From: a phage | Assembly (NCBI GenBank): GCA_020241125.1 | Contig: GCA_020241125.1_4708.1 | Reading direction: 5' to 3' (one strand) | DNA length: 64,000 nucleotides | Shown: positions 4,860-63,447 of the stretch, in pieces | Layout of the letters: each line of letters starts with the position of its first letter | How positions within the stretch are numbered: the stretch's first letter is position 1 | Translations under genes and position numbers: made by a program | The notes under the pieces: model-generated | Databases searched by the model: none | What the model saw: the letters and a program-made list of their open reading frames with translations, nothing else | Told to the model about the DNA's origin: nothing

Positions 4860-4908
4860 ATAGTTAACCTTCTCCCCAACCCGATGAGGGAAGGGGAGAA
4901 GGGCTATG
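4860..4908. terminator. GC-rich palindromic hairpin (CATA-/-TATG flanked family), between convergent genes
   Basis: CCTTCTCCCCAACCCGATGAGGGAAGGGGAGAAGG; A9 run just 5' on plus gives a U-tract after the hairpin for minus-strand transcripts. Confidence 0.5.
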
Positions 4909-4922
4909 CGCTATTTAATTTA

Positions 4923-5195
4923 TTACGAGGTTAACCACGATTCAATTGTGGTGAGTTTGCTTCTCAGTACGCGCCAACTAGGGTGTGGTGGGATCACAGC
5001 GCCTTTGTCGATTACGGTTAGCTGAACCTGGTACTTCTGTTGCATACGCGCTACCGTGTCGCTTATCGAGAGGAAAAGCTGGTAACGTTCATATGCCGTC
5101 AGTTCACTGTCCTGTTGAACTGCGTTGGCCGCTAACGTAATTTCGCGTAAGTCCTTTGCATCCACAGAGACGGTAATGAGTTTATATTGACTCAT
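4923..5195 (-). CDS. hypothetical protein (90 aa)
   Basis: ORF with AAGGAA SD 5 nt upstream of ATG. Confidence 0.55.
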   Translation of the reverse strand: MSQYKLITVSVDAKDLREITLAANAVQQDSELTAYERYQLFLSISDTVARMQQKYQVQLTVIDKGAVIPPHPSWRVLRSKLTTIESWLTS

Positions 5196-5214
5196 ACGGT
5201 TTCCTTATCAACTA

Positions 5215-5236
5215 GGGTATTGCAAATACAATACCC
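5215..5236 (-). terminator. intercistronic hairpin (not of the main family)
   Basis: GGGTATTG-CAAATA-CAATACCC, 8-bp stem between 5257 gene stop and 4923 gene start. Confidence 0.4.
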
Positions 5237-5256
5237 ACCGTCGGACGATAAGTTAA

Positions 5257-7815
5257 TTACTGCTCTTCACGTTCCAGCAGATACTCGGAAGCGGTAATAC
5301 CGTTTACCGTACGTACTGCTTTCAGACGAGTATCATCGCTCAGAATTACAGTAACAGATTGCAGACCTTTTACTTTGGTTTCGAAGGTCTTGAACACCTG
5401 ATCCAGCATACGAGCAATGCTTGGGTTGGTTGCAGCCGATGCGTGGGTGTAACCGCTTTGGTTCAGCTTCAGAATCTTGGCGTTGGTCGGTACGCGAACA
5501 ACAACATGCGGACGCATCGCGAACACGCTGTGATTGAACCAGTAAGCATCGTTGCTATCTTCGTCGGTAACGATGTCTGGATTAACACGCATATCCTCGA
5601 CAGCCGCATCCGCCAAACGACGTTCGATTTCATCGGCGTCCAGAGAGCCATCTTTCTCCAGTTCTGCACGATACTCACTCATGGCAACCAGATGACGTTC
5701 ACGATTCGCTGCGGATTTTTCGTGAGCGGCTTTCAGGTAGTCATGCATGTTGTACAGTTCTGCCATGGAAAGACGAATGTTCCACTGACCTTCGCCGTCA
5801 CGATTGCAGTAGAGACACTTCAGCATGTTGACCCAGGTATAGTAGCAATTGGAGAATTCATCTTCAATGAACTTCTGGTCCATTTTAAGATCGTGAATCA
5901 GCCAACCGGACAGTTCTCCGATATCATCAACGAAGCTAGAGATGGTGGTTTCAGAGAAGTTCTTCGGTACGATACGTTTGATCAGCTTATTGACGTCTTT
6001 GGTCATGCTATCGTTCAGGAAATGCCAAATACGCAGAGGAATAACATCTCGATACTGTTGCATGATCTGACGATAAGCTTTGATATCGTCGCTACGACCT
6101 TTATCAATAGACAACGCATCCAGGAATTCATGGATTGCATCCAGCTCTTTGTCGGTATAGGTTCCCAGATAGGAATTGACGGTGGCAAGGAATGCTAATG
6201 CGTCGTTTTGGTTAACGTCGGTGTTGGTCTGCTGAATGATTGCCACTGAAGCTTTGGTTTCAGCATCCTCAACGCTTGACGCTGCGATTGCGTCGGTGAC
6301 GGTAAACAGTTTCATTTCGCGCTGCTCACCGACAACGATTGGCTCACGTTGAACCGGTTTGTTAAGACTAACACGAACAACTTCTGCTTGCGCGATGCGA
6401 TCCAGTTTTGCCATTTCCTGCTCTGCCATACGACGAGCGGTTGGATCTGATTCAAGTTCGATGTATTCCACTTCTTCCTCCGTGAGGGATGTAATGTCAA
6501 CAATGGTTTCATGAAGAATTCCGTTTTCGTCGATACGTGCTCGACGAGCGAAGTGCCTGAAGTCATACAACGTCGGCCAACGACTATTAGGTGCAAAGTC
6601 TTTGGCTTTCAGACGCATCTGCATAAATTCTTCATGTTGAACAACACGACCGTAACGCTTAGCATCTTCGGTCGCATCAATTGGATTAACGGTCTTTGTT
6701 ACCGTAGCAGAACGAGCCGTACGAACGGGTTCCGGTTTCACCTGCGCAGGTTCAGGTTGAACGGGTTTCTGCTGCCCAGCCTTAACATGCCATTCTGGCT
6801 CTTCGTACTGCTCAGCAAATTGCTCAGCCGCTGCAAAGATATCGTTGATACCACCAATATCTCCTTCAGGATTTGTCGAGTAAATCCGTGGTTGTGGTGC
6901 CTCGTAACGCGGTGCTGTAGTAGCAGGTACCTCATCAACGATAGGATCGTCATCACCAACATCATACAAACGGTTGAACACACAATCCTTCGAATCAATG
7001 TACGATGGCGCTTGTGGTTGGACAACCGTCGGCCGAGGTTGTGCACCGTATCCTGGTGTTGTTGGAGCCATGCCGCGCATAACTGCCGGACTAGGTTGGT
7101 ATTGCGGTTGCGGATAGGTTCCACCATACATGGCGTACGCAGGCTGTTGTGGTTGACCATACCCGCTGCTAACCATCGCGCTTGCTTGCGGCCCACGATA
7201 AGTCATCCCCATCTGCATCACCTGCTGCTTCAAACCACGTGACTTCTGAGCGATTTGCGCTAGGCTTCCGCTTTTATTCAGCTGCGTGTACTTATTCGCG
7301 GCTTCCGGGTTAATGCGTGATAATTCAATCGCGCGATAATATTCCGGGTACTGATTCGGTTCAAAGAGCCACGTTACAAGATGATACAGCGCAACTGTAC
7401 TCACGGCAGCAGAGACGATCTGGTCATCGGACGCGTTCTGCGGCATCGGGTTGATGTAAGAGAACACGTTCCAACAACAGTCTTCAACAAGAGATTCCAT
7501 CATCATATCGTTATTGGTATAACGTGCGACGAACTCGGTTTGTATTTTGTCTTGCTGAGCGAAGTCTTTCAGGACATTAAAGATGGCTTGACGGATTTTG
7601 ACGATCGTCGCTTCTTGGGTGATGAAGTTATAGTTCTGCTGATATGAGGGTTGTTGGTATTGTGGTGGTTGATAGGCGTTATTCGGGTATGCGCCGTACG
7701 GCGATTGCTGATACTGTTGCTGACGAACCTGTTCAGCCGCATAATTAACCGTGCTCGTATAAGGGTTTTCGCTATAACCCATTTGTTGATACATGTTGTT
7801 ACTGCCATTATACAT
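5257..7815 (-). CDS. hypothetical protein (852 aa) with Gln/Tyr/Pro-rich low-complexity regions
   Basis: Long ORF; N-terminus MYNGSNNMYQQMGYSENPY...QPPQYQQPSYQQNY and internal GYGQPQQPAYAMYGGTYPQPQYQP. Confidence 0.8.
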   Translation of the reverse strand: MYNGSNNMYQQMGYSENPYTSTVNYAAEQVRQQQYQQSPYGAYPNNAYQPPQYQQPSYQQNYNFITQEATIVKIRQAIFNVLKDFAQQDKIQTEFVARYTNNDMMMESLVEDCCWNVFSYINPMPQNASDDQIVSAAVSTVALYHLVTWLFEPNQYPEYYRAIELSRINPEAANKYTQLNKSGSLAQIAQKSRGLKQQVMQMGMTYRGPQASAMVSSGYGQPQQPAYAMYGGTYPQPQYQPSPAVMRGMAPTTPGYGAQPRPTVVQPQAPSYIDSKDCVFNRLYDVGDDDPIVDEVPATTAPRYEAPQPRIYSTNPEGDIGGINDIFAAAEQFAEQYEEPEWHVKAGQQKPVQPEPAQVKPEPVRTARSATVTKTVNPIDATEDAKRYGRVVQHEEFMQMRLKAKDFAPNSRWPTLYDFRHFARRARIDENGILHETIVDITSLTEEEVEYIELESDPTARRMAEQEMAKLDRIAQAEVVRVSLNKPVQREPIVVGEQREMKLFTVTDAIAASSVEDAETKASVAIIQQTNTDVNQNDALAFLATVNSYLGTYTDKELDAIHEFLDALSIDKGRSDDIKAYRQIMQQYRDVIPLRIWHFLNDSMTKDVNKLIKRIVPKNFSETTISSFVDDIGELSGWLIHDLKMDQKFIEDEFSNCYYTWVNMLKCLYCNRDGEGQWNIRLSMAELYNMHDYLKAAHEKSAANRERHLVAMSEYRAELEKDGSLDADEIERRLADAAVEDMRVNPDIVTDEDSNDAYWFNHSVFAMRPHVVVRVPTNAKILKLNQSGYTHASAATNPSIARMLDQVFKTFETKVKGLQSVTVILSDDTRLKAVRTVNGITASEYLLEREEQ

Positions 7816-7849: not shown

Positions 7850-9646
7850 TCAATCGATTATGTCGTGATCGTTAATTTCTACAATTTCTTCATCGAATCG
7901 ACCGACGTCTTTCTTCAAGCCTGCATTGGTTGCTGCAACGTCATTTGCAATTTGTGGGGTAATGATTAACCGACCGCGCTCATCGATAGGTGCGTACATA
8001 CTGAACTTCTGACGTCCGGTTGGTTCGGAGTGTGGAAGATTCAGATAGCTTGCACAGAACGGGATGGAACCACTAACCAAACGACTCTCGTCAGCCAATG
8101 CAGCACCGCCTGCGTTTTGGCTCTGGAGAACAACATGCGTGCTCACTTTGAACAGCATGCAATCACCTGGTGACTGAATCGATGTTGCCACTTTCTCACG
8201 TTTATCACGATTGCTCTGGATATTGAGAATCGCTTCCGTTGCAACTTGATTTCGCAACGCCTTCTGTACATCGCGATTGGTCATCTCTTTACGGTTGTTC
8301 TGTCGTTTACCACGTTCTGTGGTTTTAAGATGGAACCCCAGTTTAAAGATGCTCTTACGCACATCCTCCATGACATATTCCAACACCATCAATTCCTTAC
8401 CGAACATCGTCGTGGTATCAACACGACTCATTTCGATAGTGACATTGTCAATCAGATACGCCATAAATTCGTAGAAGTCGTCGCAAGGAATATTTTCCTG
8501 TTTGAACTTCTTCTGCTGAATCTCGTCAACGTAAAGATCGAGACTGTCGATGTGGTGATTTACATCACGTAACAAACGCGCATCCGCGTTGTTGTTATTA
8601 AAGATAATCAAACCGAGTAATGTACGCCAATGGTCTGGCGCATTCGCGAACTCCTCAACCGGATAGTCTTCCGGAAAACGATCGTAATAACGGTCGATGA
8701 GATACAAGAATGCACCGACAAGGCCAAGAACAATACGTTCCGTGCCTCCGCGTCTTACAGCAATTTGAATATCAGGATGTTTGTAACGTACAGCGCTAGC
8801 GCTACGGCTTTTACCGCTTTTGCTGATACTAAAGCCTTTAGGAATAACCCCCATGGTGCGATAGATTACCCATTGGTCACGCGGAAAATCGCGTTCAGCA
8901 AGGTTCCGTCCGGTTACGGCTTCGACACCTGCAAAACGTCGGAAACACTCACCCACCCCATACTTCGCAAAGAGATAGTGACCCAGTGTGGTTACGCTGG
9001 TGTGGTTGATGTTGTCACCGTTCACTTTACTTTGTTTAGTAAGATGGTAGATTTGCGACCAGGGTAACGACAGGTAATGACGATAATCGATACCGGTCGG
9101 TGTATCATTGCTCAGGAACTGATACGGTGTACGTTTAACCGTGATTTTGTCACGCGGAAGCATGATGAACGCCATGTCTTTCGTGTAACTGATTACCGGG
9201 TCAGCGAGCACTGCACTGAGAATGAAGTTCGCACCACGTAGACGCATTTTACCACCCTGACCTACCGCGGGTAATAGGAGAGGATGTCGGATAATGCAGT
9301 AGTCCTTTCCGGGTTCACGACGGTCACCTGATTCCATCGCGCCGTACCAGCGGAATTCTAGCATCACCATAAACACATCGGATGGCGCAAGGTCGAAGGT
9401 CAGCTTACCGCTATCCTTCCCTTTGGTTTTCTTTCCTCCGCTTAAGTAGTGGAACTGTTCGCGGGCCATACAGCGACGCAGGCCATGATACACCAGATCC
9501 TTAGGTAAACTATCTTTGCTGTTCCGCCAAAGACGATCAACATAGGACTCAACATCTTGCATCTTATCGACGACGATGTTGCGTGCTATCTTCTCGTTCA
9601 TCTTCGGTGCAAGCCCAGCGACAGCTTTGCAGAATCTAGGATCCAT
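7850..9646 (-). CDS. hypothetical protein (598 aa)
   Basis: ORF-track start is GTG at 9649; ATG at 9646 has AAGGAG 6 nt upstream. Confidence 0.8.
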   Translation of the reverse strand: MDPRFCKAVAGLAPKMNEKIARNIVVDKMQDVESYVDRLWRNSKDSLPKDLVYHGLRRCMAREQFHYLSGGKKTKGKDSGKLTFDLAPSDVFMVMLEFRWYGAMESGDRREPGKDYCIIRHPLLLPAVGQGGKMRLRGANFILSAVLADPVISYTKDMAFIMLPRDKITVKRTPYQFLSNDTPTGIDYRHYLSLPWSQIYHLTKQSKVNGDNINHTSVTTLGHYLFAKYGVGECFRRFAGVEAVTGRNLAERDFPRDQWVIYRTMGVIPKGFSISKSGKSRSASAVRYKHPDIQIAVRRGGTERIVLGLVGAFLYLIDRYYDRFPEDYPVEEFANAPDHWRTLLGLIIFNNNNADARLLRDVNHHIDSLDLYVDEIQQKKFKQENIPCDDFYEFMAYLIDNVTIEMSRVDTTTMFGKELMVLEYVMEDVRKSIFKLGFHLKTTERGKRQNNRKEMTNRDVQKALRNQVATEAILNIQSNRDKREKVATSIQSPGDCMLFKVSTHVVLQSQNAGGAALADESRLVSGSIPFCASYLNLPHSEPTGRQKFSMYAPIDERGRLIITPQIANDVAATNAGLKKDVGRFDEEIVEINDHDIID

Positions 9647-11296: not shown

Positions 11297-11321
11297 TTTT
11301 TTCTATTCGCAACAATAAACG

Positions 11322-11370
11322 GCATAGAAACCTCCCCCAACCCTTGCGGGCTGAGGGAGGCTGACTTATG
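11322..11370. terminator. GC-rich palindromic hairpin family member downstream of putative MCP gene
   Basis: GGCATAGAAA-CCTCCCCCAACCCTTGCGGGCTGAGGGAGG-CTGACTTATG. Confidence 0.5.
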
Positions 11371-11459: not shown

Positions 11460-13682
11460 TCAGTTAGTCTGAACAGGCAGCTTGATGTTTTCAGTGTAGA
11501 CCTTACGCAGGTTCACAACGTTAATCAGACCCAGCAGCGGGCAGTTGTTAACGAAGCGGCAGCGCGGCTGAACCATGGTTTCTTTAGAAACCTGACCGTT
11601 ACGGGTAACCTGAGCAACAGATACCAGTTCCGGTACATACAGGAACATACCGAAGGTCAGCGGATCCGGAGAACCCTGGATACCACGAGACAGGGTCACG
11701 AAGATCTTATCGCGCAGCATGACGTTCGGGTTATCTACAACTACGAAGTTGAAGCTTACACCAACGGTACGGAAATCACCATCGGTCTGCAGGAACTGCG
11801 GGATGTAGTTGTCAGTTGCTACTACGCAACGCGGTTTCTCATCAGCGTTGGAAGACAGCAGCTGCAGAGCTGGCTGATAACCAGACTCGGAGTACATGCG
11901 GTATGCCATCTCACGAATCACGTTCATGATCGCAGCAGACACTTCAGCACGACGTTCTGCAGTGGTGGTACCCTGAACAGATTTCTCCAGGTCCAGATTG
12001 ATTTCTTCGAACCACGGACGGATCAGGTAACGACCGAAACCTTCGATCTGGATGTCACCGAACTGACGGAAGCGAGAGGTCGCAACCGCTTTCAGTGCGT
12101 CTTTGTAGCTGAACAGTTTCTCAACCATCAGGTTGTCGAAACGTGCGTTAGCAGCTTGGATCAGAACGTCCAGGTCAGCAGCGTTTTCTTCCCAATCCAG
12201 CGGACGAGGAATGGAGAACGGAGCCAGCAGGCCGATTGCGTAACGTTCTTGCTTCATGTTGAAGTCAAGGTGCTTACCGCGCTCACGACGGTTGCTGTTG
12301 TTACGGCGGATACGCAGTTCGTAACCAACCAGTTTGAAGCTCAGGTCTTCAGCCAGTTGTTTGAACTCTTCGCTCTTACGCGGTTGTTCGATGTTGTCCT
12401 GATCAACCAGGCGATACAGTTCAGCGTTAGCGCCGTTAACACGCAGACCGGCTTTCTCTACGTTGGAAGAACCGTAAACTTCGATCGCCAGCTGAGCAGC
12501 AGATTTCGCATCGATGATGTCCTGCAGCGCTTCAGCTTTCGCGCCTTTAACGTCTTTGGTGTTCTCATCAACGAAGATGGAGTGGGTGTCGAACGCCAGG
12601 GTCATTTTGCGGAAGTCGCCTTCCAGGGATTTCTGGAAACCGTTGGTGATCAGACCAGATACGTCGAACGGTACGTAAGAGGTTTTGCTGTGCTTGGTAG
12701 ATTTGATTTCCACCAGGATTTTGGTCAGCGTGATCTGGGCGTCCAGCGCGTCGGTGTTGTCGCTGTAACCGTTAGCCAGGATGCTATCGTCTTCAGCAAT
12801 ACCGATCATGTCGATCAGTTTATCAACAGCCAGGTAAGACGTTTTGTAAGTTACGCCTTTAATTTCGATGTCGCGCGGAGCAACGATAGCTTTGTCAACG
12901 AAGTACTGTGCGTTAGCATCGTCAGCACGATAGATCGGATGCAGATCGGTCACGTCGTTGGACAGAACGTCGTTGTACATGAACGCATCCAGCAGCGGAC
13001 GACGTACCCAATCAGCCGGAGTACCGTCAGCGTTACGACGCAGGTGGTTGAACACCAGCGGACGACGGAAAGATACGTCGTAACCGATCTGGTTCGGAGC
13101 CAGAACGATGGTGTTGTACAGTTCGTTACCCATGCGGCTCAGACGAGAAGCCTTCACGTTGAACACAACGGAGTACGGCATCATGTCACGCAGTTCTTTC
13201 TGGTCGTAGGACAGCTGAACCAGTTCTTCAGATTCGCAACCGCAGGAATCAGCAGCCATCATGACGAAGTTAGAGCTGTCAACTTCACGGCCAGACGGAG
13301 TGGTGCTGATGTTCATGGAACGTGCTTGTTTAGCATATTCTACCGGGTTACCATGAGCCAGCATGATCAGTGCTGCTGCACGAGCCTGCTGTGCGTTCAT
13401 GGTGAACAGCTGTTCTTCAATACGCTGCTTCTCTTCCGGAGTGGTGGTTTCGAAGCCCAGCATGGACAGAACCGGTTCTTCGGCTTTACGGATGTCGCTG
13501 CTGAAGCTCTTAACATCCATTTCGTTAACCAGTTTGTCCATGGATTTGAAATCAACCTTAGAAGCAGATTCCATAGACAGGAAGGTGTTCTCCAGACCTT
13601 TGTCTGCTGGTTTGCTACCATTAGCGGTCAGGAACTGGCGAGTGGCCGCGACCTGTTGGCTAAGAAGGGTTTTATCATTCAT
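11460..13682 (-). CDS. putative major capsid protein (740 aa; size comparable to phiKZ-type MCP)
   Basis: Strong host-optimal codon usage suggesting high expression; AAGGA SD 8 nt upstream of ATG; functional call from size and codon usage only. Confidence 0.5.
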   Translation of the reverse strand: MNDKTLLSQQVAATRQFLTANGSKPADKGLENTFLSMESASKVDFKSMDKLVNEMDVKSFSSDIRKAEEPVLSMLGFETTTPEEKQRIEEQLFTMNAQQARAAALIMLAHGNPVEYAKQARSMNISTTPSGREVDSSNFVMMAADSCGCESEELVQLSYDQKELRDMMPYSVVFNVKASRLSRMGNELYNTIVLAPNQIGYDVSFRRPLVFNHLRRNADGTPADWVRRPLLDAFMYNDVLSNDVTDLHPIYRADDANAQYFVDKAIVAPRDIEIKGVTYKTSYLAVDKLIDMIGIAEDDSILANGYSDNTDALDAQITLTKILVEIKSTKHSKTSYVPFDVSGLITNGFQKSLEGDFRKMTLAFDTHSIFVDENTKDVKGAKAEALQDIIDAKSAAQLAIEVYGSSNVEKAGLRVNGANAELYRLVDQDNIEQPRKSEEFKQLAEDLSFKLVGYELRIRRNNSNRRERGKHLDFNMKQERYAIGLLAPFSIPRPLDWEENAADLDVLIQAANARFDNLMVEKLFSYKDALKAVATSRFRQFGDIQIEGFGRYLIRPWFEEINLDLEKSVQGTTTAERRAEVSAAIMNVIREMAYRMYSESGYQPALQLLSSNADEKPRCVVATDNYIPQFLQTDGDFRTVGVSFNFVVVDNPNVMLRDKIFVTLSRGIQGSPDPLTFGMFLYVPELVSVAQVTRNGQVSKETMVQPRCRFVNNCPLLGLINVVNLRKVYTENIKLPVQTN

Positions 13683-14491: not shown

Positions 14492-16102
14492 ATGGACCCA
14501 AAACAGATAGCCATTAAGATTATTACGTTACTGTTTCGTAATGCACAATTGAACCATCCCGATCCCAGTACGATCGAACATGTTAAATCCGTCTTAGATA
14601 AAGTCGAACCCCCGAAAAACCATCTCGCTACAGACGTAGATAGAGAGGTTTTCAACAACCTGATGAATACCATTCATTGGATGTTGGAACAACCATTATC
14701 GGAACCTTTCGATAAACAACAGTTGTTACAAAGGATACGTTTGGATTGCCTTGAACAAAGCAATCTTTACGAGATTCTTGCCGACGGACTGTACGATATC
14801 GAAGACGACGCTCATATCAGTAAGGTCTGTTCACTCTATTACAACGAATTACGTAATCTGATTACCCGTCGTCGTGTTTTCGAAACCTTTAGAAACACGT
14901 ACATGGATATCAGTAACGGGCGACTTGGGGATAAAGAATTTTTCGATGCAATGGCGAATCTGAAATTATCGCTAGACAGTATCGAAATGGATACCGAAAA
15001 TCCCGAAGAGATGTCGTGTATGATTGACGGCTTTATCGCTGACAGCGAAGACGATATCGAGAAAGTCGAACGTATGTTCGTCAAAGCGATGGAACGTAAC
15101 AGTCCTGAAGGTGGATTTGTAACCGGCTGGCAAGGCTTTAATAAAATGTTGGGGTCGGTCGGTGTTTTACGTCGCGGTACCTTAGGACTGATTGGTGCAA
15201 TGCAGCACCGGAACAAGTCAGGCGTGTTGTTAAAACTGTTCACACATCTGGCATTGTACAACAAACCCCATTTCTTTTTCCCGGAGCGAGCAAAGAAAGC
15301 ATTACTGATTCATTTGTCGACAGAAAACGAAGTGGAAGAAAACACGCTTCAGATATACAAGAACATGCGAGAACAGGAAACAGGCGAATATGTCGATATT
15401 CGTAAGATTGACCCTCGCGAGGCATCACGTTATGTGTTGAAGGTGTTCAACGATGCGGGTTTCTCTGTTTGTATGCGTCGTGTTGATGGGATGAGTTATA
15501 AACAACTCGCTAATCTCATCGACCATTTCGAACGCATGGGTTATGAAGTCATGGCGTTGTTCATTGACTATCTGAAAATGTTCTCATCGGAAGGGCTGGA
15601 TAGAAATGGACCGACCGGCGCATGGCTCCAAGAACTCTTCAACAAAGTCCGTAACCTCTGCAGTGTTAAACGTATTTTAGGCATGACCGTACACCAGCTG
15701 TCATCCGATGCGAAGATGCGTGCACGTGATGGCAACGATGAAGAGTTTGTTGACCAAGTCGCAGGTTTAAGTTACTGGGATGGTTGTAAAGGGATTGACC
15801 GTGAGATTGACCTTGAAGTGATTGTTGATATCGTTAAGGAACCGGGCAAACGTCAAAGCTGGCAAGTCTTTGCATTAGGGAAAGACCGTCAACCGGATAA
15901 CGGTTCAACGAAACCTGAAGACAAACACTTCGCAATGCCATTCCAAACCATCGGGATGCTTCCTGATGATTACGGTAAGAAAGCAGTGTATTGCCGCAAG
16001 GTTGGCGGACAACCTGTCTCCGAGGGAGGTAAAGGTCCGTGGAACAAGTTCGATGAAAACGCAGCACCGAGTAATGAATTACAATTTGATTTAGAATTTT
16101 AA
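14492..16102 (+). CDS. DnaB-family helicase-like protein with non-canonical P-loop (536 aa)
   Basis: Start trimmed to ATG 14492 (AAGGA SD); DnaB-like blocks: LGLIGAMQHRNKSG (P-loop position, Gly replaced by Asn), ALFIDYLKMF (Walker B-like IDYL), MTVHQLSSDAKMR, FALGKDRQP. Confidence 0.7.
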   Translation: MDPKQIAIKIITLLFRNAQLNHPDPSTIEHVKSVLDKVEPPKNHLATDVDREVFNNLMNTIHWMLEQPLSEPFDKQQLLQRIRLDCLEQSNLYEILADGLYDIEDDAHISKVCSLYYNELRNLITRRRVFETFRNTYMDISNGRLGDKEFFDAMANLKLSLDSIEMDTENPEEMSCMIDGFIADSEDDIEKVERMFVKAMERNSPEGGFVTGWQGFNKMLGSVGVLRRGTLGLIGAMQHRNKSGVLLKLFTHLALYNKPHFFFPERAKKALLIHLSTENEVEENTLQIYKNMREQETGEYVDIRKIDPREASRYVLKVFNDAGFSVCMRRVDGMSYKQLANLIDHFERMGYEVMALFIDYLKMFSSEGLDRNGPTGAWLQELFNKVRNLCSVKRILGMTVHQLSSDAKMRARDGNDEEFVDQVAGLSYWDGCKGIDREIDLEVIVDIVKEPGKRQSWQVFALGKDRQPDNGSTKPEDKHFAMPFQTIGMLPDDYGKKAVYCRKVGGQPVSEGGKGPWNKFDENAAPSNELQFDLEF

Positions 16103-16106
16103 ACGC

Positions 16107-16119
16107 AAAAAAAAAAAAA
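16107..16119. repeat. A13 homopolymer tract
   Basis: 13 consecutive A immediately after stop of 14492..16102. Confidence 0.9.
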
Positions 16120-16125
16120 GATTGT

Positions 16126-19478: not shown

Positions 19479-19489
19479 GGTTAGACAGT

Positions 19490-51151: not shown

Positions 51152-51190
51152 TTCAAGTAGGTTGATCCTCGCTTAACAAAAAAGAAAACA

Positions 51191-52258: not shown

Positions 52259-52300
52259 ACAACCCTTCCCCGGCCTGATGGCTAGGGAAGGGGCTATGCT
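52255..52300. terminator. GC-rich palindromic hairpin family member, intercistronic
   Basis: GCATACAA-CCCTTCCCCGGCCTGATGGCTAGGGAAGGGG-CTATGC; overlaps first ATG of 51794..52258. Confidence 0.45.
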
Positions 52301-52306
52301 ACGTTG

Positions 52307-52705
52307 TTATGCTTCGCAATCAGCTGAAGGCGTCGCGCCTTTCTTACCAGCGATACGCCAAATCCGACACGCTGGGTAATGGTTAACCTCTAGAGAGCAA
52401 GGAATGTTATATTTCTCTTCCAGCGCATAAAGACATTTCGTTAGCTGCTCCAGCGCGTTCTCGTCGTGTCGTAACGCGTGGTGGCCTAATCGATGTTGGT
52501 CGTTCTTTATATACGCCTCGAAGAGAACATGTTGGCGATGTACGCTGACGTTTACAGCCTCGAGTATAGCTTGGTCGAGCATACGACTAAAGCACATCAA
52601 CGAGTCAGATACGTTTTCTCGCTTAACCAGATCGATCATGGCGGGAATATACGAATGGTCGATGTTATCGATGACCGCTTTAGCGACGGAATCAGCAACG
52701 TTCAT
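52307..52705 (-). CDS. hypothetical small protein (132 aa), tandem paralog of 52743..53138
   Basis: Shares VKAVxDNIDH and EEKYNIPxSLEVN blocks with the next gene. Confidence 0.7.
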   Translation of the reverse strand: MNVADSVAKAVIDNIDHSYIPAMIDLVKRENVSDSLMCFSRMLDQAILEAVNVSVHRQHVLFEAYIKNDQHRLGHHALRHDENALEQLTKCLYALEEKYNIPCSLEVNHYPACRIWRIAGKKGATPSADCEA

Positions 52706-53940: not shown

Positions 53941-54405
53941 TTACTCCTTAGTTCCTTCTTCGTTGGACGTATATTCCACATAGTGGAATTCACGGCCGTC
54001 GATAAACTTGAGTGCTACTGTAATAGGGAAATCACACGGCATAGCGGATTTCGTAAATGCGTTATCAGCAACATCAGATAACCGACGTATGGTATTCTCC
54101 CCTTTTGCTATGAATGGGAATTTAATGTTAATAAGGATACGGTGTTTGTAAATAGTAAAGACGACAGTGCTGTCGAAATGTACCCCAGTTAAAGTCATTG
54201 TTGGGATACGTTTTACAACGGAGAAATGTGTCCCGTCAATATCGCTACTTCCCACTGACCATTCATCGGAATTGCGTAGACTTTTCTTGAGGATATCAAC
54301 GCTTTGCGTGACCACCTCAGCAACTTGTACGACGTACGTGTCTTTATGCATGTCGAAAAGTTCGTTGACGTTAGATTTGAATGAATAAACCGTTGCCATT
54401 ATCAT
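53941..54405 (-). CDS. hypothetical small protein (154 aa)
   Basis: ORF; C-terminal HYVEYTSNEEG resembles neighbours. Confidence 0.65.
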   Translation of the reverse strand: MIMATVYSFKSNVNELFDMHKDTYVVQVAEVVTQSVDILKKSLRNSDEWSVGSSDIDGTHFSVVKRIPTMTLTGVHFDSTVVFTIYKHRILINIKFPFIAKGENTIRRLSDVADNAFTKSAMPCDFPITVALKFIDGREFHYVEYTSNEEGTKE

Positions 54406-54860
54406 ACCTCTTTTTTCATCTTCATCGGAACAGCGAGTGCAGCACTCGCTGTTCCATTATCCGGCTCATATTCCAATGTAACGAGATTGCAGCCGTCCGA
54501 TAATTCATAATCGATCGCTAGGGGGAACGAGATACCGTGCGACTTTATGCATTTACCAAATGTCTCGTTGGCTGTATACATTAGAAGTTGCTTTGCGGCA
54601 AGCCCGTTTACGCTGAAAGGTAATTGTGCTGTCGCAGCGATACGATTATTGTAAACTCTGATATCGGTGATATCTACAATCGTAGCATTGCCGTGTTGTG
54701 TTGATGGAACGGATAGGTTGTAGAAGTAAGGTTCGGAGTCGGAATCGGGCTCGTTAAATAATTCCCAGCACCCGTCCTCCTGCAATCTTACTTCGAGTAT
54801 TTCAAAGCTTTTAATTATCGATTCTACCAGCTGCTCACCGTAAGAATCCCATGTCGTCAT
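54402..54860 (-). CDS. hypothetical small protein (152 aa)
   Basis: ORF; C-terminal LEYEPDNG motif. Confidence 0.65.
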   Translation of the reverse strand: MTTWDSYGEQLVESIIKSFEILEVRLQEDGCWELFNEPDSDSEPYFYNLSVPSTQHGNATIVDITDIRVYNNRIAATAQLPFSVNGLAAKQLLMYTANETFGKCIKSHGISFPLAIDYELSDGCNLVTLEYEPDNGTASAALAVPMKMKKEV

Positions 54861-56171: not shown

Positions 56172-56597
56172 TTAATTCAGTGATGCATATAAGGCATAAC
56201 GACTGTAGATCTCAACCGCCGGTCCGTTATGCGTTAACAGACCGTCTCGGCTGTAATACTGGAAAAATGAATAACGTTTGTCGAAGTGATAAACAAAAGC
56301 AATGTCTTTGCCGTCAAAACCTGTGATGCGTGGTCTGTTTTTATCTAGCAATGCTTTGACTTTTAACAGTGTTGCCGCACGTGCTTTAACGTTAGGGATC
56401 AAGCCATCACAATCGATATAAACAGTGTAACCTGTTTCAGATGTTGCGACGGTCGTATTGCGATTGACGCGGAAGATTTTTGTTTCGTATGTACTATCTT
56501 CAAGAATTGGGTTTTGTTTTTCGTATTTTCGTTTACGCAGAAATTCTACAACGGTGATATAGTTAGCGGTAATATGCCCGGTTATAGCTTGTAACAT
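56172..56597 (-). CDS. hypothetical protein (141 aa), preceded by conserved 31-bp motif
   Basis: ORF with AAGGA SD 8 nt upstream. Confidence 0.7.
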   Translation of the reverse strand: MLQAITGHITANYITVVEFLRKRKYEKQNPILEDSTYETKIFRVNRNTTVATSETGYTVYIDCDGLIPNVKARAATLLKVKALLDKNRPRITGFDGKDIAFVYHFDKRYSFFQYYSRDGLLTHNGPAVEIYSRYALYASLN

Positions 56598-56696: not shown

Positions 56697-56718
56697 CGTT
56701 AACACGAAATAAAAAACA

Positions 56719-56770
56719 GCATAGAACCCTCCTCCCACATCCTTCAAGAGGACGGTGGGAAGAGGGAGAG
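56719..56770. terminator. GC-rich palindromic hairpin family member
   Basis: CAGCATAGAA-CCCTCCTCCCACATCCTTCAAGAGGACGGTGGGAAGAGGGAG. Confidence 0.45.
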
Positions 56771-56771
56771 A

Positions 56772-57173
56772 TTAAATGTCGTGGACGGCAATGCCGTTTA
56801 ACCAGCAATACAGCTTAACGCGACAGGAATACCGCTTCGTTGCGGCAACCATTTCATCGCGTAAACGCTGGTATATTTCATCCTGGTGTTCACGATCAAT
56901 GGGGTAATCAGCCCAACATTCGATCATGACGTCACCATTCGTCAGAATCGTCGTACGCATCCTGTCCTGGATACGGCGGTCTTTCCCGGCATTAGGGAAA
57001 TACATTCCTTCAGTACGAATAAGGTCGCCGCAAGGCATGACTAACCATTCGTTCGTTTTGCCGGTATTCTTATAATCCATTACAGCTTGCATTGCGGTGT
57101 CAACGCTAAAAGAAACATAATTCCAAACGGATGTCCAACGATAGATTGCGGGTTGTTCGAGTGTTTCGTTCAT
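56772..57173 (-). CDS. hypothetical protein (133 aa)
   Basis: ORF. Confidence 0.65.
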   Translation of the reverse strand: MNETLEQPAIYRWTSVWNYVSFSVDTAMQAVMDYKNTGKTNEWLVMPCGDLIRTEGMYFPNAGKDRRIQDRMRTTILTNGDVMIECWADYPIDREHQDEIYQRLRDEMVAATKRYSCRVKLYCWLNGIAVHDI

Positions 57174-57219
57174 GGAGTGCTTTTCCTATTTTTATTTTCT
57201 GCACAGGATAAATTCAACG

Positions 57220-57266
57220 GCATAAAGCCCTTCCCTGCCCTTATATGGGGCGGGAAGAGTTTATGA
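57220..57266. terminator. GC-rich palindromic hairpin family member in 214-bp noncoding gap
   Basis: GCATAAA-GCCCTTCCCTGCCCTTATATGGGGCGGGAAGAG-TTTATG. Confidence 0.4.
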
Positions 57267-57387
57267 CCGCAATGAGAATCTCTCACGACAAGCTCACGAC
57301 GATTATCGCATCACCCCGCGAGTGAGGGAGATCAGGATCACCTCCTACGTCGTAACGACAGTAATCCCGTTAACGTCGCCTTAGGCA

Positions 57388-58014
57388 TTATGCGAAGCGA
57401 CGCATGTAACCTGCCAGATAGTTACGTGTATCGAAGTAAGCAATTTCAGGAATTGCGATATTAAGGTCGATAGCACGGATTTCAACCTGGCGACGGCTTT
57501 CATCATAGATCGCATCCATCAGACGCAGTACTGTCAGGAAAGCCATGCGGGTATGGTAGTCCAGCGGCATGTTATCGATGCCACGATACAGATAACGGTT
57601 TGCATTAAATGCTCCTTCGCTGTTATCTTTCCAGATCTTCAGAATATCAGCAAAGGCGGTGCGGAAAACCTCAGGATTATCCACATCCAGTAACGCACGG
57701 AAGGCAGACATTAAAGACCGCTGATGGCGGATCAACGACTGCGGTGTTTGCGGCATGGTCGGACCCATTTCTTCCGCATATTTCTGGAACGGGGCAACCA
57801 GGGTTGCGGCACGAGAAGCCACGATAGAAACAGCAGGCGATTCTTTCACCGCTGGTTTCGCAGGCTTTTCTTCAACAACGGTTTCCTTCTTCTCAACAGC
57901 GACCGTTTCCGGCTGTGCTACAACATCACCAACCGGAGCATCTGCAACGGTGGTTTCTACCGCAGTAATCTCCTCGTCCATTTTTGCAGAACGTTGGTCT
58001 TTATTCTTGCTCAT
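57388..58014 (-). CDS. hypothetical protein with Ala/Pro/Val/Glu-rich N-terminus (208 aa)
   Basis: ORF immediately downstream of beta-prime-like gene. Confidence 0.7.
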   Translation of the reverse strand: MSKNKDQRSAKMDEEITAVETTVADAPVGDVVAQPETVAVEKKETVVEEKPAKPAVKESPAVSIVASRAATLVAPFQKYAEEMGPTMPQTPQSLIRHQRSLMSAFRALLDVDNPEVFRTAFADILKIWKDNSEGAFNANRYLYRGIDNMPLDYHTRMAFLTVLRLMDAIYDESRRQVEIRAIDLNIAIPEIAYFDTRNYLAGYMRRFA

Positions 58015-58039: not shown

Positions 58040-59341
58040 TTAACTAATATAAAGTTCGGGATCGTAAGGCGCTAACGATACACTGGCGTTATGCATTGCT
58101 TTCATCATAGTGTTCATGAAAACGTTGTTTACACCGGTGATCTCTGCCCCGATCGCGTCTGGGGTTGGAGCCATCGCGTTACCGCAACAGGTAGCACAGT
58201 ATTCCAGTGGGCCTGCTTTACAACGTTGAGGATCACGTAACTTGATGGTCTGTCCTTCCAAGGAAGCAAGTAATTCAGCATCAATAAGTTTAAGCGCTGC
58301 GCCGTCGATCATGTAACGGCCGACAAGCAGCTTATCTTTGATATGATCGCGGTTTACCGTGAACAGAATATGTTCGTGGGTACCACAGTCGTCCATCGTG
58401 ATTTTAAGGTTCTGTGTCGCACGTTGTGATTCTTTCGCCGTCTGTCCCGCTAAAGCGGTCAGTGCGCCACGTGAGAACGAACCTGCACGTGCGCTGTTGT
58501 TGTACTCCGCCCAATGGTCGACACGCATCCCTTCAGCCAGGCTGTGTGTGATAACGTTACGTTTACCAGGGTCAACGAAGTCGGCTTCAACCCCCATCAT
58601 GATGTGCGTTTTCTTTCGAGTATTACCGAAACTCTTACCGGGGTTAATATAGAACCCTTCCGATTCATCACCCTTAAAGGATTCCTTATCCATTTTGGTC
58701 AGCGTGGCTTCGAGTTTGATCAGTTCTTCAGGCGTGAACTTACCTTCCTCTTGTAAGCGTGCTAACTCTTTATCGCGATAGGCAATAATATCATCATCGA
58801 CCGTTAACGCTTTATCACTCATTGATGGAACAATTAAACGGTTGATAGCGGTTAACGCACTAATATTGTTGGTGAATTTCTTCACTTCGCTTGCGTACAA
58901 CGGACCAATTGGACGTTCGTTAGGATCGGGTATTCCCTCTTCAGGATCGTCAGCGACGCGTGGCGCAATCAGTGACTCCAGTGTACCGCTGGTCAACCGT
59001 CCTGCCTGGTATTCAATCTGAATACCGAAAGCATCATAAAGGACGTACATATTGAACAACGCTTCACCGAAGGTTGTGGTGGTTGTATTCTTAACCGACG
59101 GTAGATCACCAGGTGCAAGCTCCAATGGCTCCCAGAAACTCAACAGGGGTTTTGTTGGCTCGGTTTCCCATTGGTGTTCTTCACCGTCGATGGTAACCGT
59201 AACGACGTTACCTTGACGACGTAATTTAGGCTGATACTTCTCAGCGCCGCCTTCCGTAAAAGCAAATGCGTCGTTAATCCATTCAAGATAACGGTAGTGC
59301 CCTTCACGCATCGCGTAAAGGAAATATTCACGAGGTGTCAT
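58040..59341 (-). CDS. multisubunit RNA polymerase beta-prime C-terminal-like subunit (433 aa)
   Basis: Exact DDCGTHE motif; segment GSFSRGALTALAGQTAKESQRATQ aligns to the beta-prime bridge helix region; CATCCG near C-terminus; no NADFDGD, so this is a split C-terminal piece. Confidence 0.75.
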   Translation of the reverse strand: MTPREYFLYAMREGHYRYLEWINDAFAFTEGGAEKYQPKLRRQGNVVTVTIDGEEHQWETEPTKPLLSFWEPLELAPGDLPSVKNTTTTTFGEALFNMYVLYDAFGIQIEYQAGRLTSGTLESLIAPRVADDPEEGIPDPNERPIGPLYASEVKKFTNNISALTAINRLIVPSMSDKALTVDDDIIAYRDKELARLQEEGKFTPEELIKLEATLTKMDKESFKGDESEGFYINPGKSFGNTRKKTHIMMGVEADFVDPGKRNVITHSLAEGMRVDHWAEYNNSARAGSFSRGALTALAGQTAKESQRATQNLKITMDDCGTHEHILFTVNRDHIKDKLLVGRYMIDGAALKLIDAELLASLEGQTIKLRDPQRCKAGPLEYCATCCGNAMAPTPDAIGAEITGVNNVFMNTMMKAMHNASVSLAPYDPELYIS

Positions 59342-62458: not shown

Positions 62459-62550
62459 TCGATCCGCGATACGGGTTACATGACGGACAACTTGTTCGTA
62501 ATGATGAAAAAATCTGGGAATTGCTATTAGCCCGTAAAGGCGACGGTGGC

Positions 62551-62880
62551 ATGAAACTGAACATCGAAATGGGTATTGCGTACGATACCATGTTTGGCTT
62601 GTACGATCGTGTTAACGACTGGACGCCGTTGAAATGGGTTGCTCAGCATCCCGCTGAAGATCCCTGGGACAGATTGGGGATTAAACCCTTAATCGAAGAT
62701 TATGTCCGATTCGGTATTAAAGAGTTCATGACGCTGGATGCGTTTTTACAAGCACCGTATCCTTACGCGCAAACGGTACTCAAAATCGCACAAGACGAAC
62801 TGCGGAAACGTAGTGCGGTACTGGACGACGATGAGGACAAGTTACGACGAGAAGAAGAACGTTTACGAAACGGAAAATAA
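62551..62880 (+). CDS. hypothetical protein (109 aa)
   Basis: ORF-track start is TTG 62521; ATG 62551 chosen. Confidence 0.55.
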   Translation: MKLNIEMGIAYDTMFGLYDRVNDWTPLKWVAQHPAEDPWDRLGIKPLIEDYVRFGIKEFMTLDAFLQAPYPYAQTVLKIAQDELRKRSAVLDDDEDKLRREEERLRNGK

Positions 62881-62881
62881 A

Positions 62882-63391
62882 ATGGCGAGATTTACCAGTT
62901 TGATTGGGTTGGATATTTGGGAAACACCGGCTGACGTTCGGGTTATTCCTGTTAACACCGTCGGTGTGATGGGACGTGGTCTTGCCAAACAGGCAGCCGA
63001 TCGTGTACCCGGTCTTCTTGAAGCGTACCGTAAGCAATGTCAAGATGGGTTTAAGGTGGGCGAAGTCGTGTCGTATCAACACGGTGATAACGATCAACTC
63101 ACCTACGTGTTGTTTCCATCAAAATCGGATTGGCGTGAAAGAACACGACGCGAGTATATCGTTAACGGTTTACTGGCGTTAAAAGCATGGTTACTGGAGC
63201 TTCAGTTCGAAAGAGACGGCTTCTCATATCGGCGTCCGGCTGAACCGCTGATCGTTGCAATTCCTCCGGTTGGTTCTGGTTGCGGTAATATCGGTTACGG
63301 ACAATCCGAAACAATCCAGCCTCAGTGGGTACGCGCACAAATCAAACAGTATCTTGCCACCGTACCGAACGTTCATTTCTACTTGTTCTAA
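62882..63391 (+). CDS. macro-domain protein (ADP-ribose binding/processing fold, 169 aa)
   Basis: GLDIW...VRVIPVNTVGVMGRGLAKQAADRVPGLLE matches macro-domain N-terminal blocks (GDIT...VNAAN...GGGV); LIVAIPPVGSGCGNIGYGQ matches the second macro motif; starts 1 nt after upstream stop. Confidence 0.7.
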   Translation: MARFTSLIGLDIWETPADVRVIPVNTVGVMGRGLAKQAADRVPGLLEAYRKQCQDGFKVGEVVSYQHGDNDQLTYVLFPSKSDWRERTRREYIVNGLLALKAWLLELQFERDGFSYRRPAEPLIVAIPPVGSGCGNIGYGQSETIQPQWVRAQIKQYLATVPNVHFYLF

Positions 63392-63401
63392 CGCAACGGT
63401 A

Positions 63402-63447
63402 ACATAACCCTCTCCCTTCCCTGCTGGGTTGGGAGAGGGCTTATGCT
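63402..63447. terminator. GC-rich palindromic hairpin family member between convergent genes
   Basis: CCCTCTCCCTTCCCTGCTGGGTTGGGAGAGGG (core is reverse-complement orientation of the 19496 copy), flanked ACATAA / CTTATG. Confidence 0.5.

Follow-up and report, generated by a model that had tools for sequence, protein, structure and literature searches.

Gene-end hairpins in a Goslar-like jumbo phage as candidate terminators for phage-encoded RNA polymerases

Thirteen hairpins downstream of genes

The window, by which we mean the whole 64,000-nt stretch of phage DNA analyzed here, comes from a new relative of the E. coli jumbo phage Goslar (86-98% identity). Goslar is a phiKZ-like, nucleus-forming phage of E. 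coli. Thirteen GC-rich hairpins had been predicted in this DNA, and all 13 are present at the sites described below. An RNAfold scan of both strands with 44-nt windows puts them, at approximately -21 to -30 kcal/mol, ahead of every other hairpin in this DNA in strength. Intergenic DNA amounts to 3,041 bases, or 4.75% of the window, and holds all of them, an outcome with a chance probability of ~0.0475^13 = 6e-18 by our own arithmetic, and all lie 3′ of a minus-strand gene. As predicted, they directly follow stop codons (median distance 16 nt; 4-22 nt in 11/13), and their placement goes with the stop codon upstream rather than with the downstream start, which is 4-208 nt away.

Several hairpins had been placed between convergent genes; five elements, all bidirectional, in fact occupy all five convergent junctions of the window. 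Element 4856..4912 (site 4860) lies between 1927..4836(+) and 4923..5195(-). Its hairpin (4868-4902) comprises 10 bp, a 2x2 loop, 3 bp and a 5-nt loop, with tails GCTATGCGCT on the plus strand and TTAACTATGTGT followed by a T-run on the minus strand, and the element is identical in Goslar. Element 16106..16173 (site 16126), between 14492..16102(+) and 16180..16506(-), has a two-tier hairpin (16132-16163) with the plus-strand tail GTTATGACCG; its minus strand is without TATG and carries a T13 run 12 nt downstream. The two-tier hairpin (41710-41741) of element 41698..41754 (site 41703), between 38695..41688(+) and 41751..44543(-), has tails AATATGCTGTTAT (+) and TTATGCTCATGC (-) and is the best covariance-model match, at 58.2 bits. 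Element 51177..51246 (site 51191) separates the DNA polymerase gene 49400..51151(+) from 51238..51723(-), its hairpin (51200-51231) being followed by TGAGGTTTATGCGCG on the plus strand and by CTTCGCATGTG and then a T-rich run on the minus strand. Element 63397..63454 (site 63402), between 62831..63391(+) and 63457..63831(-), has a two-tier hairpin (63408-63439) with tails CTTATGCTGTTATGC (+) and TTATGTTACCG (-).

The remaining elements are assigned to the minus strand, to which the tails given here belong. Element 11318..11370 (site 11322; hairpin 11331-11360, tail TTTCTATGCCGTT) lies 99 nt past the stop codon of gene 11460..13682(-), which encodes the major capsid protein, and its hairpin is ~11 kcal/mol more stable on the minus strand because of three G.U pairs. 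Four nucleotides after the stop of 19532..20899(-), element 19488..19533 (site 19490) has a two-tier hairpin (19496-19527) and a degenerate tail (TCATATAC; Goslar counterpart CTTATGCTGTC). Element 24790..24830 (site 24793), 3′ of gene 24837..28214(-), is a simple, phiKZ-style hairpin (24801-24820) reading GCCCGCCC-UUCG-GGGUGGGC on the minus strand, with one G.U pair and the tail TTTATGCTGTC. Two-tier hairpins recur in element 30717..30766 (site 30722; hairpin 30729-30760, tail TTTTATGGCGTT, plus strand without TATG), 10 nt after the stop of 30771..32060(-), and in element 33423..33474 (site 33427; hairpin 33435-33466, tail TTCTATGCCGCT), 22 nt after that of 33489..34811(-). Element 52251..52303 (site 52255; hairpin 52263-52292, tail TTGTATGCCGAT) follows the stop of 52307..52705(-) by 14 nt. 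The long imperfect hairpin (56727-56766, tail TTCTATGCTGTTTTTT, covariance-model E=1.2e-4) of element 56711..56772 (site 56719) lies 5 nt after the stop of 56772..57173(-), and element 57216..57268 (site 57220; hairpin 57227-57260, tail TTTATGCCGTT, E=8e-4) lies 127 nt after that of 57388..58014(-).

Form, strand asymmetry and evolution of the family

A strict descriptor, which requires a purine arm to pair with a 7-nt arm of C and T only, matched 17 strand-loci in the window, against a mean of 0.1 and a maximum of 2 in 50 dinucleotide shuffles. The original prediction had proposed a motif search that took in coding regions. A covariance model trained on seven window sites and run with filters off returned exactly the 13 listed sites at E<1, the weakest being site 24793 (E=0.56), so the list is complete for this hairpin family; these matches are all intergenic, and across the whole window coding regions gave matches only at E>=5. 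The typical form given originally, CCCTCTCCC-AA-CCC-GTAA-GGG-AA-GGGAGAGGG, is exact at sites 19490 and 33427, and most other elements are two-tier variants of it. In most elements the two tiers are an outer stem of 9-10 bp and a 3 bp inner stem capped by a tetraloop, separated by a symmetric 2x2 internal loop (AA/AA or UU/UU). Site 24793 is short and simple, and sites 56719 and 57220 are longer and imperfect. Among 2.9 million viral contigs, just 3 contain the exact two-tier pattern, and all 3 are Goslar-like; the simple form followed by TTATG is found almost exclusively on contigs of 231-317 kb. On this distribution, the two-tier hairpin is a Goslar-lineage form confined to Goslar-like genomes.

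The proposed CATAA...TTATG flank is frequent but does not occur at every site. Each strand has TATG no more than 14 nt 3′ of the stem at 10/13 sites; the motif is confined to the plus strand at sites 16126 and 51191 and to the minus strand at 30722 and 56719, and is on neither strand at 19490. Three of the 13 minus-strand tails (16126, 19490 and 51191) thus have no TATG, and two of these have T-runs instead (16126 and 51191, in keeping with the A/T runs noted originally near some sites); the tail is therefore not strictly required. On the transcribed strand, the consensus for the window and Goslar together is (Y)TTATG-C-Y-G-T, with the U before the G lying 4-8 nt past the stem in 32/37 cases. 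A small sample of SPN3US tails is T-rich (CTTTTAT) and lacks the G; the family as a whole therefore does not share the exact tail.

Strand asymmetry points to selection on the structure of the RNA. Of the 19 one-directional sites in Goslar, 16 have the hairpin more stable on the sense strand (Wilcoxon p=0.003), and G.U pairs number 20 on the sense and 5 on the antisense strand. The 14 nt 3′ of the stem contain TATG on the sense strand at 18/19 of these sites and on the antisense strand at 5/19 (Fisher p=3e-5), against a background of 3.2%. The tail asymmetry is weak in the window alone (15/18 sense vs 5/8 antisense) and becomes clear only genome-wide in Goslar.

The stems have evolved in a manner that preserves pairing: 99.2% of cells are paired and 7/12 pairs have changed on both sides, which none of 500 shuffles reached. 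In a comparison of four related genomes, pairing in the stems is retained, the loops are variable and the inner segment changes orientation. At site 63402, for example, TC>CT is matched by GA>AG. Stems also differ between copies with compensation, and it is therefore structure and not sequence that is kept. The 13 window sites each have an orthologous position in Goslar, and the 13 that Goslar has in the shared region all recur in the window; the two therefore show no presence/absence polymorphism. Several copies are nearly identical, and the loop change AACA is found at both 30722 and 41703; together these point to gene conversion, and the copies are therefore not fully independent observations. 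The inner segment has been inverted independently at three sites (the inner 14 nt of 16106..16173 in contig C182865, the inner segment of 33423..33474 in contig C237533, and the inner 14 nt of 63397..63454 relative to Goslar).

Relation to phiKZ-type terminators

phiKZ terminators, whose 3′ ends were mapped by ONT-cappable-seq, follow the consensus 5'-BCCYCCCCHWWDGGGRRGGBYTTATKYYGT-3' (Putzeys et al. 2024, PMC10914365). They share with the window elements a pyrimidine 5′ arm, a purine 3′ arm, a TTAT-K-Y-Y-G-T-type tail, a place a few nucleotides past stop codons and, between convergent genes, service in both directions. In phiKZ the hairpin has one stem of 6-8 bp closed by a 4-nt loop, whereas most window elements are two-tier; site 24793 has 3 mismatches to the published consensus. 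Detection works in both directions: the window-trained model matched phiKZ sites just 3′ of stop codons down to E=1.8e-5, and the 23 Y/R hairpin loci in an 86-kb portion of phiKZ lie without exception between genes and have CTTATGCTGT-type tails. For 201phi2-1, the published study (PMC11512511) reports a terminator motif A that resembles the phiKZ motif, motifs A and B that combine into a longer hairpin, 15 bidirectional terminators, and several terminators that were confirmed in vivo, where they lowered reporter expression downstream in a terminator trap. The likeness of that elongated A+B hairpin, as described there, to the Goslar two-tier hairpin is one of analogy only.

Both phiKZ and this phage encode the same two multisubunit polymerases. 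Gene 7850..9646(-) is a homologue of phiKZ gp123 (tblastn E=3e-52; 24% identity over 578 aa) with 7/14 residues of the TATG pocket identical. In phiKZ, gp123 is the beta-like subunit of the non-virion RNA polymerase, which binds single-stranded, non-template TATG (PMC12809450). The homologue is probably the reader of the hairpin/TATG signals.

We consider it quite probable that the elements are factor-independent, intrinsic-type terminators adapted to the multisubunit RNA polymerases that the phage itself encodes, and are the Goslar-lineage version of the phiKZ-like motif. Post-stop position, convergent-junction occupancy, structure-preserving evolution, RNA-strand asymmetry and the phiKZ match all favor the terminator role proposed originally, and the proposed bidirectional use is borne out by hairpins at 5/5 convergent junctions in the window and at 19/20 in Goslar (18/20 by the strict descriptor plus one by the covariance model). 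Transcript ends have been mapped for phiKZ; for this phage we infer both 3′-end formation and the identity of the polymerase, with termination resting on homology with phiKZ and 201phi2-1. As a Goslar-type version of a phiKZ stop signal already mapped experimentally, the family is a solid but largely expected finding. The transcript would fold into a GC-rich hairpin with a pyrimidine-only 5′ arm and a purine-only 3′ arm, followed 0-6 nt later by UUAUG-C-Y-G-U in place of a long U-run. The polymerase would stop and release at the short, weak UUAU stretch 4-8 nt beyond the stem. At convergent junctions, one palindrome with a tail on each strand would block transcription from both sides.

Alternative readings

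The elements could instead be mainly RNA 3′-end stabilizers or processing stops, at which read-through transcripts are protected by a hairpin that blocks 3′-to-5′ exonucleases, with no real termination. We regard this as possible, if on the unlikely side. The great stability of the hairpins, their action on the transcribed strand and the absence of a long U-run are in its favor, and 3′-end mapping alone, in phiKZ and 201phi2-1, does not separate termination from processing or stabilization of read-through transcripts; 3′-end sequencing in phiKZ cannot by itself tell protected ends from termination. A pure exonuclease block would have no need of the conserved, directional sequence downstream of the hairpin, however, and a need to keep polymerases from colliding would account for hairpins at nearly every convergent junction. 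The lowered reporter expression in the terminator trap of the 201phi2-1 study also argues against it. The two roles are compatible, so that stabilization is an added function more than an alternative: a hairpin remaining at the mRNA 3′ end would probably also shield it from exonucleases.

The original prediction further held that the elements may be terminator-plus-promoter modules. In such a module, transcription of the upstream gene would end at the hairpin, and the TATG beside it, as a phiKZ-type late promoter, would let the non-virion polymerase start anew at its G to transcribe the next gene. The prediction was right that phiKZ has a TATG late promoter: these promoters require TATG with G as +1, and their strength depends on sequence downstream of +1 (Yakunina et al. 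2015, PMC4666361). The tail has the same tetranucleotide, its C-Y-G-T is conserved, the window encodes a homologue of the TATG-binding core, tails at tandem sites lie 4-208 nt upstream of the next start codon, and three stand-alone TATGC copies precede minus-strand genes, including the capsid gene. The module itself is nevertheless unlikely, as the tail tracks the strand of the gene end and the element keeps to the stop codon upstream and not to the start downstream; at tandem sites, promoter activity would be conceivable. At convergent junctions the tail is present on both strands (24 of 36 tails by our own count), and a promoter there would yield antisense RNA only. P119L, the model late promoter of phiKZ, sits between divergent genes in an AT-rich gap that has no hairpin, whereas the TATG of the window follows a hairpin; the window's divergent gaps, where promoters must lie, have no consistent TATG. 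Away from hairpins there are 6 intergenic TATGC, approximately the number predicted from coding-region density.

In E. coli, REP/BIME elements are repeated, GC-rich, imperfect palindromes that lie between genes at 3′ ends and play a part in mRNA stability. The window elements are alike in repetition, composition, imperfection and location, and might be a DNA-level repeat (a REP- or MITE-like mobile palindrome, recombination hotspot, cruciform or protein-binding site) found at gene ends through insertion tolerance. The near-identical copies, the shared loop change, the three inversions, and the fact that two of the three large gene-content differences between the window and Goslar begin within ~110 nt of a hairpin would suit such a repeat. 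We consider it very improbable, given that the sites are orthologous both ways with no presence/absence variation, that stem differences are compensated, and that the tail is strand-specific relative to gene direction. G.U pairs concentrated on the transcribed strand would be meaningless for duplex DNA or a cruciform, sequence likeness to REP/BIME is nil, and the same grammar recurs in phiKZ, which has no nucleotide-level similarity to Goslar according to the description of that phage.

E. coli terminators typically have a C-rich left arm and a G-rich right arm, as do the window elements, which also share with bacterial rho-independent terminators a GC-rich hairpin and an expected release point a few nucleotides past the stem. 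As in bacterial bidirectional terminators, a palindrome between A-rich and U-rich stretches serves both directions. Unlike the bacterial signals, the window copies share sequence and not shape alone, and a conserved UAUG-C-Y-G-U replaces the U-tract, with no run of >=5 U. That they are ordinary host-type terminators read by E. coli RNA polymerase, alike only by chance, is hardly credible: GC-rich hairpins after genes, T-runs near some elements and the label 'putative transcriptional terminator' given to sites 24793 and 63402 in the Goslar record by a standard predictor would fit, but arm polarity, two-tier form and the TATGCYGT tail are common to copies far beyond chance, both hairpin forms have the narrow distributions given above, and a hairpin-plus-T-run scan of 1-20 kb flagged 0/4 family members, with its sites at chance level (17 vs 19.4). 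The same analysis found sigma-70-like promoters depleted (14 vs 29.6 expected).

The hairpin family and its lineage

Hairpins are present at all thirteen intergenic positions of the original prediction (4860, 11322, 16126, 19490, 24793, 30722, 33427, 41703, 51191, 52255, 56719, 57220 and 63402). When RNAfold was slid along each strand without prior selection of sites, these 13 hairpins came out as the strongest local structures of either strand. A strict descriptor required a 7-nt arm of only C and T, at least five of them C, and a purine arm pairing with it over 3-26 nt. It gave 17 strand-loci in the window, whereas 50 shuffles that preserved dinucleotides gave 0.1 on average and never more than 2. 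The polarity of a pyrimidine 5' arm and a purine 3' arm was found at 13/13 sites. A MAFFT alignment of 18 sense instances misaligned the variable inner stems, and a gapless two-tier set was used instead; a covariance model, R1, was built from the gapless alignment of 7 window sites. With filters off, the R1 matches in the window at E < 1 were exactly the 13 sites, and matches in coding regions began only at E values of at least 5. The window is 95.2% coding, with 3,041 intergenic bases, and 13/13 sites are intergenic. The motif is thus not equally frequent inside genes, and this test, named beforehand, decisively failed to refute the family. Rfam 15 at the gathering threshold returned no matches in the whole window. 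Counts and p values given here refer to copies within a genome, which are not independent, and some tests counted both strands of a palindrome.

Most of the elements have a two-tier architecture. Their outer stem of 9-10 bp has an all-pyrimidine 5' arm and an all-purine 3' arm, and is followed inward by a symmetric 2x2 internal loop that is AA/AA on one strand and UU/UU on the other. The apex is a 3-bp inner stem (CCC/GGG or GGC/GCC) with a 4-5-nt loop. Pairing in the gapless alignment held in 99.2% of cells, with both sides changed in 7 of 12 pairs, and none of the shuffles or slid registers of this alignment came near the observed pairing. The site at 24793 is a simple 8-bp hairpin, whose minus strand has a UUCG loop and one G.U pair. 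When 2.9 million viral contigs were searched, the exact two-tier pattern occurred in three, all of them Goslar-like, and the simple form followed by TTATG occurred in 19 places, 16 of which were on contigs of 231-317 kb.

A 12-kb piece of the window is 96% identical to Escherichia phage vB_EcoM_Goslar (MK327938), a 237-kb nucleus-forming phiKZ-like jumbo phage, and the whole window aligned by BLAST (77-98% identity) to Goslar ~31,979-94,037, the two differing in gene content at three places. Around the hairpins, identity to Goslar and two further Goslar-like IMG/VR contigs was 86-98%. Since the window is identical to none of these three genomes, it represents a fourth member of a small lineage. 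Genes were mapped as long ORFs, guided by the Goslar annotation. At 17614-19386, a 1.77-kb stretch with two minus-strand ORFs (17630..18610 and about 18618..19480) stands in place of 82 bp of Goslar, and its right edge is ~110 nt from the hairpin at 19490. Goslar itself has a 1.78-kb insertion at 81186-82966 in its DNA polymerase region (window counterpart 50896-50914), in which Goslar_00069 encodes a NUMOD1/HNH endonuclease; the insertion probably represents a homing element or mobile intron found in one genome only, and the window polymerase ORF (49400..51151) is unbroken and free of it. At 52316-54953, starting 23 nt past the hairpin at 52255, the window has ~2.6 kb of small genes on the minus strand, which match the 0.55-kb Goslar counterpart hardly or not at all at the nucleotide level.

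Comparison of the window with Goslar showed hardly any change in stems and tails; the substitutions lie in the apical loops. The outer stem at 63402 displays a double compensatory change in the four-genome comparison, CCCTCTCCC/GGGAGAGGG versus CCCTCCTCC/GGAGGAGGG. The inner 14 nt (AA-CCC-NNNN-GGG-AA) is exactly inverted in one of the four genomes at each of three sites, namely window 16146-16159, 33449-33462 and 63422-63435 within the hairpins at 16126, 33427 and 63402, respectively. This is a repeated "flip/flop" between the inverted repeats of the outer stem, and its occurrence at three sites indicates that the orientation of the inner segment is evidently neutral and not under selection. 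The loops at 30743-30746 and 41724-41727 both read AACA in the window and GTAA in Goslar. That two separate copies share one 3-nt change suggests that gene conversion has occurred between them.

Gene context, transcribed strand and tail

All 13 elements are located 3' of a minus-strand gene. The distance from stop codon to hairpin is 4-22 nt at 11 of the sites and 99 and 127 nt at the other two, with a median of 16 nt. Five sites lie between convergent genes and account for 5/5 convergent junctions of the window; at tandem sites, the next start codon is 4-208 nt away, a broad spread. Across the Goslar genome, the descriptor found 33 loci (18 convergent, 14 tandem and one divergent according to the annotation) and the model about 36. 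Counting a model match at 232,596, 19 of the 20 convergent junctions of Goslar have an element. The placement of elements at the convergent junctions of both genomes supports the bidirectional use that had been proposed for them.

At one-directional Goslar sites, the hairpin of the sense RNA (the strand on which a gene ends upstream of the hairpin) was the more stable one in 16 of 19 cases (Wilcoxon p=0.003). Over these sites, 20 G.U pairs were counted in the sense hairpins and 5 in the antisense hairpins. Folding of the opposite strand turns a G.U pair into an A.C mismatch, and the asymmetry therefore speaks for selection at the level of the transcript and against a role of the elements as duplex DNA or as a cruciform. 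A REP- or MITE-like mobile palindrome is a very unlikely explanation on the basis of the same sense bias and of occupancy: orthologous positions in the shared region are filled at 13/13 window sites and 13/13 Goslar sites, with no presence/absence variation.

The tail follows the same strand. TATG was found within 14 nt past the stem at 18/19 one-directional Goslar sites in the sense direction and at 5/19 in the antisense direction (Fisher p=3e-5), the background for a random 14-mer being 3.2%. Among all Goslar sense tails, 37 of 50 have TATG, and it is followed by C (23/37), Y (30/37), G (22/37) and T (18/37); the U preceding the G of TATG lies 4-8 nt past the stem in 32 of these 37. In the window, 15 of 18 sense tails have TATG, and the asymmetry is weak in the window alone. 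At convergent junctions the tail usually occurs on both strands (24/36 tails in Goslar), which gives the symmetric CATAA...TTATG look from which the original prediction had described the family. That flank is frequent but not universal: on either strand, 10/13 sites have TATG in the 14 nt 3' of the stem. Its reading as a mere extension of the stem was rejected, as antisense flanks of one-directional sites are usually without the motif.

In all hairpins of the family, the purine arm with its tail (e.g. GGAGGAGGG-TTATG) resembles a strong Shine-Dalgarno sequence at ideal spacing from an ATG. We rejected the tail ATG as a start codon because ORFs from these ATGs span 4-66 codons, with the exception of a 154-codon ORF at 52255 that is a mechanical extension and absent from Goslar. 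Given these short ORFs, the likeness appears incidental. One Goslar gene, Goslar_00047 (49584..49772, 62 codons), has its annotated start at the ATG of a terminator tail, CTTATGCTG. The orthologous region of the window, ~19400-19495, reads TCATATAC and has no such ORF, and the Goslar gene call may therefore be spurious.

Comparison with mapped phage terminators

Transcript ends of phiKZ have been mapped by ONT-cappable-seq (Putzeys et al. 2024, PMC10914365). Most of the predicted intrinsic terminators of phiKZ share the motif 5'-BCCYCCCCHWWDGGGRRGGBYTTATKYYGT-3', a stem-loop and then TTAT, and six regions between convergent genes are bidirectional terminators (PMC10914365). The same motif (n=59) was described for 201phi2-1, in which two motifs combine into elongated hairpins; this phage has 15 bidirectional terminators, and several terminators were confirmed in vivo (PMC11512511). 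When the phiKZ motif and the window elements are compared position by position, arm polarity and tail are common to both. The window family also shares with the phiKZ terminators the intergenic placement after stop codons and the bidirectional use at convergent junctions.

Detection worked across the two groups. Allowing at most 5 mismatches, the published phiKZ consensus matched 11 sites in phiKZ 1-50 kb, and it matches the window site at 24793 with 3 mismatches. The window-trained R1 found 9 intergenic loci in phiKZ 1-50 kb, most of them right after stop codons (best E=1.8e-5). A like-for-like descriptor applied to 86 kb of phiKZ gave 23 loci, 23/23 intergenic and most of them 6-30 nt past a stop codon, with tails that include CTTATGCTGT. 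Because arm polarity and tail are shared and each model detects the other group, we place the window family in the phiKZ-type terminator class. The reading of the elements as terminators is supported by these features and by the position after stop codons, all of which match the mapped phiKZ terminators, and we regard the elements as predicted transcription terminators of this lineage on the grounds of homology and anatomy. The terminator class itself is already known from phiKZ and 201phi2-1. New is the lineage-specific two-tier hairpin, which sets the window elements apart from the phiKZ terminators. Our literature search found no paper describing Goslar terminators or promoters; a Goslar RNA-seq time course (bioRxiv 10.1101/2023.09.20.558163) comes without an analysis of transcript ends.

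The "hairpin + TTATG" terminator thus extends from Pseudomonas phages to a genus that infects E. coli and is without nucleotide similarity to them. This argues for the signal being a property of the unusual RNA polymerases of this phage family and not of one host. It also provides an annotation rule for operon ends in Goslar-type genomes, where about 36 sites fit and standard predictors called only some. As compact bidirectional terminators, the elements may serve in the engineering of these phages.

Canonical rho-independent termination by the host enzyme describes the elements poorly. Host-type terminators were defined as a hairpin followed at once by a U-run, with at least 5 T in 8 nt; the family tails are of the UUAUG type, and distal T-runs occur only on some minus-strand flanks. 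A hairpin plus T-run scan of window 1-20 kb flagged 0/4 family members and found such sites at chance level. The Goslar record labels 2 of the 13 sites as putative terminators, a low number that is explained by the elements not being canonical host-type. Sigma-70-like promoter matches in window 1-20000 numbered 14, compared to 29.6 expected from shuffles (sd 5.9), a depletion consistent with selection against host-polymerase promoters. No link was seen between the elements and the RNA-binding protein ChmC, whose eCLIP in PhiPA3-infected cells reported no motif and placed binding near start codons.

Three other structures in the window were noted. On the minus strand at 56129-56146, after the gene 56172..56597, GGTGGGG-TTCG-CCCCACC is followed by T7; this terminator is annotated in Goslar and is the sole clearly host-type terminator seen in the window. 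A perfect 12-bp hairpin at 44559-44589, with the purine arm first (CCTAGGGGAAGG-N7-CCTTCCCCTAGG) and hence opposite in polarity to the family, lies in a tandem gap, has no TATG tail of its own and was missed by the family model (E=3.4). The 3' end of ORF 54402..54860 contains a perfect 14-bp palindrome (54427-54455, GGAACAGCGAGTGC-A-GCACTCGCTGTTCC) that has no sequence kinship to the hairpin family.

Other jumbo-phage genera were sampled at 30 kb each. Salmonella phage SPN3US (20-50 kb) has hairpins with pyrimidine and purine arms at gene ends, at 13374, 21185 and 26634 of the 20-50 kb piece, two of them at convergent junctions; their tails are T-rich (CTTTTAT) and not TATGCYGT. The sampled 30 kb held few such hairpins in Ea35-70 and none in AR9. 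In this small sample of 30 kb per genus, the predicted tail seems to vary between genera.

TATG at promoters and tails

The late promoters of phiKZ carry TATG, as correctly stated in the original prediction, and the G of this TATG is +1. Late promoters and terminator tails have this tetranucleotide in common, and there is structural knowledge of the subunit that binds it: in a 2026 structure, the four bases of non-template TATG sit in a pocket under the beta-lobe of gp123, the beta-like subunit of the phiKZ non-virion RNA polymerase (PMC12809450). The window phage encodes phiKZ-type multisubunit RNA polymerases, including a gp123 homologue at 7850..9646(-) (E=3e-52) and a further RNAP subunit homologue at 58040..59341(-), which is Goslar_00078. 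Of the 14 TATG-pocket residues, 7 are identical in the Goslar-type gp123 homologue and two are conservative aromatic swaps, the overall identity being 28%; this degree of pocket conservation is suggestive only.

We consider it an unlikely hypothesis that one pocket of the gp123 homologue reads TATG both at late promoters and in terminator tails. The pocket of the elongating non-virion polymerase would capture single-stranded TATG and cause a pause. The RNA of the paused enzyme would end in ...UAU at 4-8 nt from the stem, a position at which the hairpin could release the transcript and which corresponds to the classical geometry of hairpin-driven release. The enzyme set free in this way could, at tandem sites, start again at the G of TATG. 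If true, one protein pocket would define both starts and stops, which would account for sequence-specific terminators of a polymerase with a fixed sigma-like subunit and for conserved positions downstream of the release point. The shared TATG and the known binding subunit make such control of initiation and termination directly testable, and the interest of the family would rise if both were read by one pocket.

The original prediction had also proposed that the elements double as promoters, by virtue of the TATG next to the stem. This is unsupported. The hairpin-adjacent TATG tracks the strand of the gene end; at convergent junctions, which have no downstream gene, it is present on both strands; and the position of the element is tied to the stop codon upstream of it. 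The model phiKZ late promoter, P119L, sits in a divergent gap that is AT-rich and has no hairpin, and the window elements lack this AT-rich, hairpin-free context upstream of a served gene. Restart of transcription from the hairpin-adjacent TATG may occur at tandem sites, but it is unlikely. Away from the hairpins, the window has 6 intergenic TATGC, near the number predicted from coding density and thus no excess. Three stand-alone TATGC are found upstream of minus-strand genes, one of them at the capsid gene.
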